Below are positions 53,917-60,512 of a DNA stretch of 64,000 nt, piece after piece. The notes under the pieces are model-generated. The model made no database searches. It worked only from the letters and a program-made list of their open reading frames with translations, and was not told where the DNA came from. Made by a program: the position numbers and the translations under genes. Origin of the DNA: Escherichia coli (GTDB lineage Bacteria; Pseudomonadota; Gammaproteobacteria; Enterobacterales; Enterobacteriaceae); the NCBI RefSeq assembly GCF_044647545.1, contig NZ_CP172818.1. One strand, given 5' to 3'. Positions within the stretch are counted from its first letter, which is position 1. Every line of letters starts with the position of its first letter.

Positions 53917-55161
53917 TTACTGATACACCGGCAGCAAATTAAAGCTCGATAAGATATGGACCAGTGCGTTGCCAACGCCAAATACCAGAATCAGCATAAT
54001 CATCGGCTTGCCGCCCCAGACGCGGAATTTCGGGCTACCAAAGCGTTTACGCGATGCGCGGGCCAACAGCGCCGGAACAATTGCCGCCCAGATGGTAGCC
54101 GCTAAGCCAGCATAACCAATGGCGTACAGGAATCCGTTAGGAAACAGCAGGCCACCCACAACAGGCGGGGCAAAGGTCAGCAACGCTGTTTTCAAACGGC
54201 CCATAGCCGAGTCGTCGAAACCAAACAGATCTGCCAGATAGTCAAACAAACCCAGCGTTACGCCAAGGAACGAACTCGCTACCGCAAAGTTTGAGAATAC
54301 GACCAGCAGAAGATCCAGGCTACGGCTGTTCAGCACGCCGCTTAACGCCTGTACCAGCACATCAATATTACCGCCCTTCTCGGCGATGCCGATAAACTCC
54401 GGACGAGGGATGTTGCCCATCGTCGCCAGCAACCAGATGGTATACAGCGCCAGCGCCATCAGCGTACCGTACACCAGGCATTTCACGATGGTTTTCGGAT
54501 CTTTGCCGTAATACTTCATCAGGCTCGGCACGTTACCGTGATAACCAAACGATGCCAGACAGAATGGCAGTGTCATCAGCAGATACGGCGCATAAGACGC
54601 ATTGCTTTCGGCGACGTTGAACAATGTCGCAGGCTGTACATGCCCCAGTAGGCTACCGAAGGTGAGGAAGAAGGTAATGACTTTCGCACCCAGCACAATC
54701 GCCGTCATCCGGCTGACCGCTTTGGTGCTCAACCACACCACAAACGCCACCAGCAGTGCAAAACCAAAACCCGCTGCCCGTGCCGGGACGTTCAATGACA
54801 TCTCTGCGAAGGTATGATGCAGAATCGAACCGCTGGCAGAAATATAGGCATAGGTCAGGATATAGAGCACAAAGGCAATGGAAATGCCGTTGACCACGTT
54901 CCAGCCTTTGCCCAGCAAATCTTTGGTGATGGTGTCAAAGCTAGAACCGATTCGGTAATTCAGGTTAGCTTCCAGAATCATCAAGCCGGAATGCAGCATA
55001 CAGAACCAGGTAAAGATCAGCGCCGCCATTGACCAGAAGAACCACGCCCCGGACATGACCACAGGCAGAGAAAACATCCCTGCGCCAATAATGGTGCCGC
55101 CGATAATCACCACGCCGCCAAGCAGCGACGGTGACGTTTGGGTGGTGGTTAGTGTTGCCAT
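53917..55161 (-). CDS. mtr: Tryptophan-specific permease
   Basis: 414 aa membrane ORF. Confidence 0.9.
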
Positions 55162-55214
55162 GAGGGCTTCTCTCCAGTGAAAAATAGTGCGACTGCGTTG
55201 TTATGCATTGCACT

Positions 55215-55232
55215 GTACCAGTACATGAGTAC
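55215..55232 (-). promoter_or_regulatory. Candidate TrpR operator in the mtr promoter
   Basis: gtaccagtacatgagtac, an imperfect palindrome with GTAC half-sites resembling the trp operator, ~55-70 bp upstream of the mtr start. Confidence 0.4.
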
Positions 55233-55240
55233 AAAAGACA

Positions 55241-55272
55241 GAAAAAAAGCCCCGATTGTTAAAATCGGGGCT
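55241..55272 (-). terminator. Rho-independent terminator downstream of deaD
   Basis: Plus strand aaaaaaagccccgattgttaaaatcggggct (A run, then stem), i.e. stem + U run on the minus strand. Confidence 0.6.
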
Positions 55273-55314
55273 GTATATATTATTTTACAGACTGTATTCG
55301 CTGTTCAGCGATGA

Positions 55315-57204
55315 TTACGCATCGCCACCGAAACGACGACGACCGGTAGAGTCATCACGACGCGGTGCGCGGCCTTCACGACGTTCGCCGCTAAAACGAC
55401 GACCATCACCACGGCCACCTTCACGGCGTTCACCGCTGAAGTTACGACCGCCTTCACGACGTTCGCCACCGAAACCACGACCACCGCCACGACGCTCACC
55501 GCCAGTATGCGGCTGTGCATCGCCCAGTAACTGCATATTCATCGGCTTGTTGAGAATGCGAGTACGCGTAAAGTGTTGCAGCACTTCACCCGGCATACCT
55601 TTCGGCAGTTCGATGGTGGAGTGAGAAGCAAACAGCTTGATGTTACCGATGTAACGGCTGCTGATGTCGCCTTCGTTAGCAATCGCACCAACGATATGAC
55701 GAACTTCAACACCATCATCGCGGCCCACTTCAATGCGGTACAGCTGCATATCGCCAACATCACGACGTTCACGACGCGGACGATCTTCACGGTCACCACG
55801 CGGGCCACGGTCGTTACGATCGCGCGGACCACGGTCATCACGGTCACGGAATTCACGTTTCGGACGCATCGGCGCATCTGGCGGAACAATCAGAGTACGT
55901 TCACCCTGTGCCATTTTCAGCAGTGCGGCGGCCAGAGTTTCGAGATCCAGCTCTTCACCTTCTGCCGTCGGCTGAATTTTGCTCAGCAGTGCACGGTATT
56001 GATCCAGATCGCTGCTTTCCAGCTGCTGCTGTACTTTAGCGGCGAATTTTTCCAGACGACGTTTGCCCAGCAGTTCTGCGTTCGGCAGTTCAACTTCCGG
56101 AATGGTCAGCTTCATGGTGCGTTCAATGTTACGCAGCAGACGACGCTCACGGTTCTCAACGAACAGCAGCGCACGGCCAGCACGGCCCGCACGACCAGTA
56201 CGACCGATACGGTGAACGTAAGACTCAGAATCCATCGGGATATCGTAGTTAACTACCAGGCTGATACGCTCAACGTCCAGGCCACGGGCCGCAACGTCGG
56301 TCGCAATCAGGATGTCCAGACGACCATCTTTCAGTCGTTCCAGTGTCTGCTCACGCAGCGCCTGGTTCATGTCACCGTTCAGCGCGGCGCTGTTGTAGCC
56401 GTTACGCTCAAGGGCTTCTGCCACTTCCAGAGTCGCGTTTTTGGTACGAACGAAGATAATCGCCGCATCAAAATCTTCCGCTTCCAGGAAACGTACCAGT
56501 GCTTCGTTTTTACGCATACCCCAGACAGTCCAGTAGCTCTGGCTGATGTCAGGACGGGTAGTCACGCTGGACTGAATGCGCACTTCCTGCGGCTCTTTCA
56601 TAAAGCGGCGGGTAATGCGACGAATCGCTTCCGGCATGGTTGCAGAGAACAGAGCGGTCTGATGACCTTCCGGGATCTGCGCCATAATAGTTTCAACGTC
56701 TTCGATGAAGCCCATGCGCAGCATTTCGTCAGCTTCATCCAGAACCAGACCGCTCAGTTTAGAGAGGTCCAGAGTGCCACGTTTCAGGTGGTCCAGCAGA
56801 CGGCCCGGAGTACCGACAACGATCTGCGGCCCCTGACGCAGGGCGCGTAATTGCACGTCATAACGCTGGCCGCCGTACAGGGCAACCACATTTACGCCGC
56901 GCATGTGTTTAGAGAAATCCGTCATTGCCTCAGCAACCTGTACCGCCAGTTCGCGGGTCGGTGCCAACACCAGAATCTGTGGTGCTTTCAGCTCAGGATC
57001 AAGATTCTGCAGCAGAGGTAAAGAGAATGCTGCAGTTTTTCCGCTCCCCGTCTGGGCCATACCCAGGACGTCGCGGCCATTCAGCAGATGTGGAATACAC
57101 TCTGCCTGAATTGGAGATGGTTTTTCGTAACCCAGATCGTTAAGGGCTTCAAGGATAGGAGCCTTCAGGCCCAGATCTGCAAAAGTGGTTTCGAATTCAG
57201 CCAT
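55315..57204 (-). CDS. deaD: DEAD-box RNA helicase (CsdA)
   Basis: Start at [21 protein letters not shown] gives 629 aa; Arg/Gly-rich repetitive C-terminus. Confidence 0.9.
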
Positions 57205-57383
57205 GTAGTACGTGTGCCTCAAAATTAATGGCGGCCAGTCTACATAACTCATCATGAAATTGATCAGCAATTTTCATTGAAAAGTGTGAACCGGCTCAAA
57301 GTAGGTGTATTAACGAACAACAACGCCCTCACCCGTTAAGGTGATGGCAATCAAAAAAGATTACGGGCTGATGTGTACGTCAG

Positions 57384-58268
57384 CTATTGCTGGTCCGATT
57401 CTGCCAGGTCATCTTGGTCCTGGCCCAGGAGCGATAATTCCAACAATGCGTATCGGTGCTCAACAAAGTTATGAACGTTGTTGGCAACCGCCAGTTTGAA
57501 CAGTGCCGTGGCGCTGTCCAAATCCCCCAGACTTAGGTAGTACTTACCTAAATAGAAGTTGGTTTCACTGAGATGCTCAGCGAGCGAGGTGTTATCCGTT
57601 GCGTCCGCCTTGAGCCTTTCCATTAACGTTTGTTCGCTAATGTTGCCCAGGTAGAACTCGACAATGTTCCATCCCCACTGTTCCTTATCCGATTTTTCGA
57701 AGTGCTGTTTCAACACTTCTTTAGCCTGCTTCTCATCGAGCTTCTGCTCGGCGAGATAAAGCCACAGACTACGGAAAGGATCATTAGGATCGTCTTGATA
57801 AAACGCCAGCAGATCATCTTGCGCTAACTTGTCACGACCGCCGTAATATAATGCGATCCCGCGATTCAAGTGCGCGTAGTTGTAAGTTGGATCAAGCTCA
57901 AGTACAGAATCAAACGCTTCATAGGCAGCATCAAAATTGCCTGCCTGCGTTAAATATATGCCTAAGTAATTGAATACTTCAGGCATATCCGGTCGGATTG
58001 CCAGCGCTTGCGAAAAATCGTTACGCGCTAATGCCCTCAGACCGAGACTATCATACAACACTCCGCGCTCATATAAAAGCTGTGCGCGTTCGTCATCGGT
58101 TAAAGCCCGACTGGCAAGGATTTGTTCCATACGTGCCAGAATCACTTCCTGCTGTAAAGTCGGTTGCAATGGTACCGCGAGGACTTCACTTTTACGCCAG
58201 GAAGTATTACTGCATCCTGCAAGCGTAAGTGCTGTCGCAACGAAACACCAGCGCAAAAAAGGCTTCAT
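57384..58268 (-). CDS. nlpI: TPR-repeat outer-membrane lipoprotein
   Basis: 294 aa ORF with lipoprotein signal (LAGC). Confidence 0.9.
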
Positions 58269-58376
58269 TTCCCACTCCCGAAGACCACGGTTGAATGAAC
58301 GTCCTGTTCCCGGTTGCTAACAAGGCGTCCTGCCCGGTTAAAAGCCCCCCGCCGCAGCGGAGGGCAAATGGCAACC

Positions 58377-60512
58377 TTACTCGCCCTGTTCAGCAGCCGG
58401 AGCTTCCGGTGCTGCAGCAGGTTGAGACTGCTCAGTCGCTTCTTTAATGCTCAGACGGATACGGCCCTGGCGATCAACTTCCAGAACTTTCACCGGTACT
58501 TCCTGACCCATCTGCAGGTAATCGGTCACTTTCTCAACGCGTTTGTCAGCGATCTGAGAGATGTGTACCAGACCTTCTTTACCGCCGCCGATGGCAACAA
58601 ATGCGCCAAAGTCAACGATACGGGTCACTTTACCATTGTAGACGCGGCCCACTTCGATTTCTGCAGTGATCTCTTCGATACGACGAATAGCATGTTTCGC
58701 TTTCTCGCCGTCGGTCGCTGCGATTTTCACAGTACCGTCATCTTCGATTTCGATGGTGGTGCCAGTTTCTTCGGTCAGAGCACGGATAACAGAACCGCCT
58801 TTACCGATAACGTCTTTGATCTTGTCCGGGTTGATCTTGATGGTATGGATACGCGGAGCGAACTCAGAGATATCGCCGCGCGGCGCGTTGATCGCCTGTT
58901 CCATTACGCCCAGGATATGCAGACGCGCACCTTTAGCCTGGTTCAGTGCAACCTGCATGATCTCTTTGGTGATACCTTCAATTTTGATATCCATCTGCAA
59001 TGCAGAGATACCGTCGCGGGAACCCGCAACTTTGAAGTCCATATCGCCCAGGTGATCTTCGTCGCCCAAAATGTCAGACAGTACAACGTAGTTGTCGCCT
59101 TCTTTCACCAGACCCATTGCGATACCCGCAACAGCAGCTTTGATCGGCACACCTGCGTCCATCAGCGCCAGAGACGCGCCGCACACGGAAGCCATAGAAG
59201 AAGAACCGTTGGATTCGGTGATTTCAGACACCACACGTACGGTGTACGGGAATTTGTCCATATCCGGCATGACTGCCAGCACGCCGCGCTTCGCCAGACG
59301 ACCGTGACCAATTTCACGACGCTTCGGAGAACCGACCATGCCGGTTTCGCCTACGGAGTACGGAGGGAAGTTGTAGTGGAACAGGAAGGTGTCAGTACGT
59401 TCGCCCATCAGTTCATCAAGAACTTGCGCGTCACGTGCAGTACCCAGCGTTGCGGTAACCAGCGCCTGAGTTTCACCACGGGTGAAAAGCGCAGAACCGT
59501 GAGTACGCGGCAGCACGCCAGTACGCACATCCAGACCACGAATCATATCTTTTTCACGACCGTCGATACGCGGTTCGCCTGCCAGTACGCGGCTACGAAC
59601 AACGTTTTTCTCGATAGCGTGCAGAATTTCACCCAGTTCGTTTTCGTCCAGGGTTTCATCTTCAGCAAGCAGCGTCGCGATGGTTTCAGATTTGATGACA
59701 TCAACCTGCGCATAACGCTCTTGTTTGTCGGTGATGCGGTAAGCATCGCTCAGACGAGCTTCAGCCAGTGCAGCAACGCGCGCGTTCAGCGCTTCGTTTA
59801 CCGGCTCCGGCTGCCAGTCCCAACGCGGTTTACCGGCTTCTTTCACCAGTTCATTGATGTTCTGAATAACAACCTGCTGTTGTTCATGACCGAACACTAC
59901 TGCGCCCAGCATCTGGTCTTCGCTCAGCAGTTCAGCTTCAGATTCAACCATCAGTACAGCTGCTTCAGTACCCGCAACAACCAGATCCAGTTTGCTCTCT
60001 TTCAGCTCGTCCTGAGTCGGGTTCAGTACGTACTGGTCATTGATGTAACCTACGCGGGCAGCACCAATCGGACCATTGAACGGAATACCAGACAGAGACA
60101 GTGCTGCGGAAGCACCAATCATCGCGACGATATCCGGGTTAACTTGCGGGTTAACAGAAACCACGGTGGCGATAACCTGAACTTCGTTGACGAAGCCTTC
60201 CGGGAACAGCGGGCGAATCGGGCGGTCAATCAGACGCGCGATCAGGGTTTCGCCTTCGCTTGGGCGGCCTTCACGACGGAAGAAGCTACCCGGGATACGA
60301 CCAGCAGCGTAGGTACGCTCCTGATAGTTAACGGTCAGTGGGAAGAAGTCCTGACCTGGTTTGGCTTTTTTCTGGCCAACAACGGTAACGAATACCGCGG
60401 TGTCATCCATGCTAACCATAACAGCGGCAGTAGCCTGACGAGCCATCATGCCGGTTTCCAGAGTCACGGTGTGTTGGCCGTACTGGAATTTACGAACGAT
60501 CGGATTAAGCAA
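58377..60512 (-). CDS. pnp: Polynucleotide phosphorylase (TTG start)
   Basis: 711 aa from a TTG at 60510-60512 ((M)[20 protein letters not shown]). Confidence 0.9.

Follow-up and report, generated by a model that had tools for sequence, protein, structure and literature searches.

The 3' end of the Escherichia coli cold-shock DEAD-box RNA helicase gene deaD (csdA) encodes an arginine- and glycine-rich tail built of four degenerate repeat units, and the repetition that can be seen in its DNA is a by-product of this protein repeat together with a strong CGT/GGY codon bias. The explanation that best accounts for the observations, and that we regard as very probably correct, is that of an old duplication held in place by selection on the protein, yielding a disordered tail that would act in RNA tethering and condensation and that only rarely gains or loses pieces in frame; the functional steps are our inference, since no paper accessible to us assigns annealing, RNA tethering or condensation to residues 568-629 in particular. 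The tail itself is already known, as a curated Pfam family of a well-studied helicase, and the significance of the analysis beyond annotation is small. It does illustrate that a repeat in coding DNA can be wholly accounted for by codon bias and a repeat in the protein, and that repeats explained in this way should not be taken as slippage hotspots. Positions are those of the window, by which we mean the whole stretch of 64,000 nt that was analysed, and are collected in Table 1.

Table 1. Window positions of deaD, its C-terminal tail and associated features
Feature	Position	Strand	Basis or remark
deaD (csdA) CDS, 629 codons plus stop	55315..57204	minus	ORF list, NCBIfam PRK11634, Pfam
Arg/Asp-rich linker, DeaD residues ~444-487	55744..55875	minus	low complexity, DRGPR sub-repeat
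DbpA-type RNA-binding domain, residues 489-558, immediately 5' of the tail	55531..55740	minus	Pfam PF03880, PDB 5B88
C-terminal Arg/Gly/Glu-rich tail, residues 568-629, predicted disordered	55318..55503	minus	Pfam PF12343
Repeat unit 1, 11 residues, 33 nt	55471..55503	minus	
Repeat unit 2, 11 residues, 33 nt	55438..55470	minus	
Repeat unit 3, 15 residues, 45 nt	55393..55437	minus	
Repeat unit 4, 21 residues, 63 nt	55330..55392	minus	most degenerate unit
C-terminus GGDA (conserved) and TAA stop	55315..55329	minus	
GGCGGTG direct repeats, 55497-55503 and 55482-55488	55482..55503	minus	flank the 15-nt unit GGCGGTGAGCGTCGT
GTCGT direct repeats, 55456-55460 and 55444-55448	55444..55460	minus	flank the +12 insertion site
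GCGTCGTG direct repeats, 55488-55495 and 55356-55363	55356..55495	minus	end points of the 132-nt deletion
ORF of 122 codons overlapping the tail	55256..55624	plus	ORF list
Alternative-frame ORF of 71 codons overlapping the tail	55305..55520	minus	ORF list
Intrinsic terminator of deaD	55241..55272	minus	10-bp stem (6 G-C pairs), 5-nt loop, run of seven T

Identification of deaD and its C-terminal tail

The gene is deaD, as the initial annotation had proposed, and RefSeq places the same name here. The protein translated from the ATG at 57204 begins MAEFETTF and has 629 aa, the same length as the K-12 protein WP_001295553.1, and the RefSeq CDS length in K-12 (1890 nt) is consistent with this start. 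The protein passes the DeaD equivalog model NCBIfam NF008642/PRK11634 with 1397.5 bits against a cutoff of 989, residues 1-629 aligning with profile positions 1-628 of 628. Its Pfam domains follow the order expected of DeaD/CsdA, with the disordered tail last: PF00270 DEAD (30-196), PF00271 Helicase_C (232-340), PF25399 DeaD_dimer (374-443), PF03880 DbpA (489-558) and PF12343 (568-629). The ORF that contains deaD in the ORF list is longer (55315..57270, minus strand, with its stop codon at 55315-55317), and runs mechanically for 22 codons 5' of the accepted ATG, across window positions 57204-57270, up to a TTG at 57270.

The window DNA at this place is 100% identical to that of E. coli FDAARGOS_497, and a match was found in 5,425 of 5,426 complete E. 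coli genomes, every match being annotated deaD with mtr immediately downstream. A single genome gave no match, and in one genome a second copy of the deaD 3' region is carried on a plasmid. In the window, an ORF at 53917..55161 on the same strand as deaD looks like mtr, a name taken from the RefSeq neighbours, and another at 57384..58268, also on that strand, is one that we take to be nlpI, the upstream neighbour of deaD in E. coli.

The assignment of the region to the Arg/Gly-rich tail of DeaD is borne out by a match to PF12343 (DeaD_C, the DeaD helicase C-terminal disordered region) that scores 45.6 bits against a gathering threshold of 23.3 and extends over the full profile (positions 1-62 of 62) at the C-terminus of the protein. 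As in the Enterobacterales DeaD/CsdA proteins of this family, the tail stands after a DbpA-type domain at the very C-terminus, and the GERR units, APRRDD and RRRFG(G)DA are common to both; nothing of substance separates them, and the tail described here represents the family in its E. coli reference form. The PDB entries named DeaD cover residues 6-210 (5GJU), 218-445 (5GI4) and 481-564 (5B88), and none of their chains reaches beyond residue 564, leaving 565-629 uncovered. In an AlphaFold model of residues 472-629, built on a 23-sequence alignment, the RNA-binding domain is folded, with pLDDT values of 70-80, and residues 567-629 have values of 39-46 without secondary structure. On this model the tail is predicted to be intrinsically disordered, in line with PF12343.

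DeaD contains a second low-complexity stretch, the Arg/Asp-rich linker between its dimerization and RNA-binding domains. Tandem Repeats Finder reports a weak period-9 match within it, at 55860-55883; the length of the linker differs between genera, and it lies outside the coverage of the solved structures.

Organization of the repeat

The 62 codons of the tail specify 19 arginines, 20 glycines, 11 acidic residues (Glu plus Asp) and four phenylalanines. The imperfect repeats named by the initial annotation are present in the protein, where translation resolves them into four degenerate units, each beginning with [G/S]GERR and finishing in F; GERR recurs at tail residues 8, 19, 30 and 45, and F at 17, 28, 43 and 64. 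Unit 4 holds the APRRDD and RRRF motifs, which are kept across genera.

Self-comparison of the DNA gives identity peaks at lags of 33, 45, 66 and 78. Tandem Repeats Finder describes a period of 33 with 2.9 copies and 71% matches at 55408-55503, and a repeat search found a 42-nt family of three copies, 74-86% identical and spaced by 45 and 33. A periodicity of the kind anticipated is present, but its period is 33-45 nt (11-15 codons) and not the short one that had been suggested. The interval given for it earlier, 55315-55520, has correct coordinates but is slightly too wide on its 5' side, the repeat proper occupying 55330-55503.

Selection on the protein and variation across genera

The action of selection was examined in seven equal-length E. 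coli alleles, chosen by their spread across the identity range, on which the count of synonymous and nonsynonymous changes rests. Thirteen of the 14 variable sites among these seven are synonymous and one is nonsynonymous, indicating that what is maintained is the repeat in the protein. The sole replacement, of Gly by Ser, makes the start of unit 2 like those of units 3 and 4, and the identical protein WP_001295553.1 is encoded by several divergent DNA alleles.

A homologue search with the 158-aa C-terminal region as query returned mostly gene fragments, which are suited to the comparison of tails and not of full-length proteins; the genera compared were Klebsiella, Enterobacter, Yersinia, Serratia, Pantoea, Hafnia, Proteus, Plesiomonas and Arsenophonus, together with metagenomic relatives. 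Across them the RNA-binding domain is almost invariant, and the tail varies from 52 to 91 aa, with between none and four GERR motifs and many indels. The Klebsiella tail contains two identical 11-residue units and a duplicated APRRDD motif, and homologue P0014 has the same REGG duplication as the +12 nt allele of E. coli described below.

The net charge of the tail is nearly constant across genera, with a mean of 7.96 and a standard deviation of 0.91 in homologues P0003-P0114, and values of +7 to +8 in most. A standard deviation of 3.5 would be expected if the basic and acidic counts were independent, and the observed correlation between them is r = 0.93; these figures are descriptive and do not constitute a formal test, because the sequences are phylogenetically related. 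Neither of the inserted pieces, REGG and APRRDD(A/S), alters the net charge. Within E. coli, the net charge is +7 for both the reference tail and the +12 allele, +8 for the +15 allele, +9 for the +30 allele and 0 for the -132 allele. That the charge should stay so nearly constant despite such differences in tail length makes this a clean small case of a disordered region in which a bulk property is under selection.

In one metagenomic DeaD fragment, P0040, the tail sequence GGERRGGGR is followed by some 30 out-of-frame residues, VSAASVVKAVAVEGGRVKVVVSPASVVKPW, before a return to PRREEGTSRRRFGDA. The shifted stretch reflects either two compensating frameshifts or sequencing errors, and it shows that stops are missing from the alternative frame of this codon-biased tract.

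Proposed origin and function of the tail

We propose that an 11-residue unit, [G/S]GERR[E/G]GGRxF, gave rise to the tail through internal duplications long ago, and that the units would later have diverged by way of small in-frame insertions, with selection on the protein probably preserving the motifs, the range of lengths and a net charge close to +7 to +8. The product may be an arm, flexible and polycationic, next to the folded RNA-binding domain; this arm would tie the dimeric helicase in a non-specific manner to structured RNA, for example ribosome precursors and mRNA in the cold, and would favour ATP-independent strand annealing; its spaced Arg and Phe residues may provide the multivalent contacts behind the RNA-dependent condensates of DeaD. 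Replication slippage, or microhomology-mediated recombination, between direct repeats of 5-8 nt would on rare occasions add or remove pieces in frame.

Strand annealing by DeaD is independent of ATP, and in other DEAD-box proteins annealing has been traced to basic tails (PMC3590231). In vitro, DeaD/CsdA separates into liquid condensates that depend on RNA and on salt, and in cells it forms foci (PMC12758526, PMC12796366). According to PMC11850223, which summarises Xu et al. 2017 on this point, the dimeric core of DeaD is active by itself, and a construct comprising the core, the dimerization domain and the RRM but not the tail surpasses this core in both ATPase and unwinding activity. The activity of a construct without the tail indicates that the tail is not part of the catalytic machinery, and since the helicase works in vitro without it, the contribution of the tail may be modest or conditional. 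The second disordered linker could also contribute to the same properties.

The closest functional parallels are with other DEAD-box proteins. The basic tails of Mss116p and CYT-19 are likewise unstructured Arg-rich extensions placed after the helicase core and an accessory domain, and tethering to large structured RNAs and assistance in annealing have been proposed for them, as cited in PMC3590231. They have no sequence homology with the DeaD tail, however, and DeaD differs in being a stable dimer, in having a DbpA/Hera-type RNA-binding domain before the tail, and in that the tail is a mixed-charge GERR repeat and not a plain basic stretch; tethering by it is something we infer.

With the RGG regions of the eukaryotic DEAD-box ATPases LAF-1, DDX4 and Ded1/DDX3X the tail has in common its Arg/Gly-rich composition, its spaced aromatic residues, its predicted disorder and its attachment to a DEAD-box core, and full-length DeaD forms RNA-dependent liquid condensates (PMC12758526, PMC12796366). 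In those proteins the RGG regions drive phase separation, whereas for DeaD condensation is known for the full-length protein. The DeaD tail is also rich in Glu and Asp, and it lies outside the formal RGG-box patterns: an RGG/RG domain is defined by at least two RGG or at least three RG with spacers of 0-4 residues, and the tail has one RGG, three RG and one di-RG (RGGGRG), with tri-RGG, di-RGG and tri-RG absent. By analogy the tail may work like an RGG region, though it has no canonical RGG box.

It is also conceivable, but in our judgement unlikely, that the tail acts as an evolutionary tuning knob, the in-frame gain and loss of GERR-type units at the short direct repeats altering its length, selection holding the charge near +8, and the resulting alleles shifting DeaD function. 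This reading draws on two charge-neutral changes, the REGG insertion of about 3% of E. coli and the APRRDD duplication of Klebsiella, and if it is true the +12 allele and the alleles with one, two or three copies of GGERR should measurably shift condensation, RNA tethering or the threshold for growth in the cold. The natural allele series (+12, +15, +30 and -132) provides ready-made variants for studies of cold adaptation, ribosome assembly and condensate formation.

Length alleles within E. coli

The length polymorphism between strains that had been predicted for this region does exist. With the tail (216 nt) as query, the 5,425 matching complete genomes divide into 5,263 at 95% identity or more and 162 at 90-95%, the latter being the band that a gap of 12-15 nt produces, and three matches cover less than 80% of the query. 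The tail is of the reference length in about 97% of these genomes and differs in about 3%.

Four length alleles were characterized, all of them in frame, retaining the conserved C-terminus and bounded by direct repeats of 5-8 nt. The +12 nt allele (633 aa) is an insertion of REGG associated with GTCGT repeats 12 nt apart, and is found in about 161 genomes, including those of strains 042 and PCN033. The +15 nt allele of XYEH3314 (634 aa; GGERR twice) and the +30 nt allele of CFIAFB20180511 (639 aa; GGERR three times) are perfect tandem duplications, both associated with GGCGGTG repeats 15 nt apart, and depending on the strain the 15-nt unit GGCGGTGAGCGTCGT is present in one, two or three tandem copies. 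The -132 nt allele of FXCREC035 (585 aa) lacks exactly the DNA between two copies of GCGTCGTG that lie 132 nt apart.

The +12 allele matches at 99% identity or more in its approximately 161 genomes, the best 40 matches being identical over the 228-nt query, and this fits a single event inherited by a lineage. The +15, +30 and -132 alleles were each seen once; for the +15 allele this count is the difference between the 162 genomes in the identity band and the 161 with the +12 allele, as BLAST breaks the +15 duplication up into a pair of overlapping segments, which reference alleles match at 100% as well. Two of the three matches with coverage below 80% are left out of the allele series given here.

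The existence of four different alleles, each lying between short direct repeats, and of a one-, two- and three-copy series of a perfect 15-nt unit, might be taken to mean that the tract is a slippage-prone hypervariable repeat in which polymorphism of tail length is routine, as at a contingency locus or in a coding minisatellite. Variation between genera in tail length and in the number of units, and the REGG duplication that homologue P0014 shares with the +12 allele, would fit such a reading, but we consider it improbable. The sole perfect tandem run of 8 nt or more in the reference tail is (CGT)3, the units being only some 70-86% identical to one another, and the great majority of genomes have one length; nearly all variants are the one +12 allele, whose near-identity points to inheritance from one event, and the other three are singletons. 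No frameshifting on/off variants occur among the alleles examined.

Contingency loci and coding simple-sequence repeats resemble the deaD tail in being repeats inside a coding region, with rare length variants between direct repeats. They consist, however, of several perfect short copies arranged head to tail, whereas the units of the tail are long (33-63 nt) and degenerate, those of 33 nt matching at 71%; and they show frequent, recurrent and often frameshifting variation, whereas in deaD frameshift switching is absent from the alleles examined and variants are very infrequent, with 162 of 5,425 genomes in the indel band. For these reasons we rejected the contingency-locus interpretation. The view of the tract as notably slippage-prone was thus too strong: its indels carry the signature of slippage or microhomology but are rare, and the tract is weakly slippage-prone.

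Origin of the repetition in the DNA

The codon usage of the tail is extremely restricted, with arginine encoded by 17 CGT and two CGC codons and glycine by GGT and GGC only, and when codon order is shuffled 108 of 1000 shuffles reach the observed whole-tail lag identity, which is therefore not significant. Both observations favour the idea that the repeat is mere low-complexity Arg/Gly codon composition without true periodic units, an idea that we nevertheless hold to be very improbable. In 500 codon-order shuffles the best local self-alignment, of 42 nt at a lag of 78 and including 18 nt of exact identity, was never reached, and the longest exact repeat (18 nt) was reached five times; GERR and F recur at the tail residues given above, and the same units align across genera. 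Low complexity alone was accordingly rejected, being refuted by the codon-order shuffles. The maximum lag identity was also matched by none of 1000 dinucleotide shuffles, a control that is weak because it ignores codon periodicity.

The relation between the repeat in the DNA and that in the protein is seen in shuffles that permute synonymous codons while leaving the protein unchanged: of 500 such shuffles, 284 reach the observed DNA self-match, so that the DNA repeat is what the protein repeat and the CGT/GGY codon bias predict. These synonymous shuffles, and the presence of (CGT)3 as the only perfect tandem run, give no sign of a recent DNA duplication in the tail.

Least credible of all is a second gene overlapping the tail, in either of the two ORFs listed in Table 1; both are open, and the plus-strand ORF and deaD have wobble positions in common, so that on a reading of the coordinates the synonymous pattern is compatible with this ORF too, but the runs of GGY, CGY and GAR codons are by their composition enough to keep stops out of the other frames, the plus-strand ORF begins at a TTG within the deaD terminator hairpin, and the conservation across genera all follows the DeaD motifs, and we therefore rejected such a gene and find both ORFs most simply explained by codon composition.

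Sequences downstream of deaD

The terminator sits 43 nt past the deaD stop codon, within the 153-nt gap that precedes mtr. An Rfam scan of 54900-58500 returned nothing beyond a match to anti-hemB on the terminator hairpin, which at 22.8 bits against a threshold of 49.5 was treated as chance. An imperfect palindrome, GTACCAGTACATGAGTAC, lies at window positions 55215-55232, just upstream of the mtr start. Expression of mtr is regulated by TrpR and TyrR, and on the minus strand the palindrome agrees at 12 of 18 positions with the trp operator consensus.
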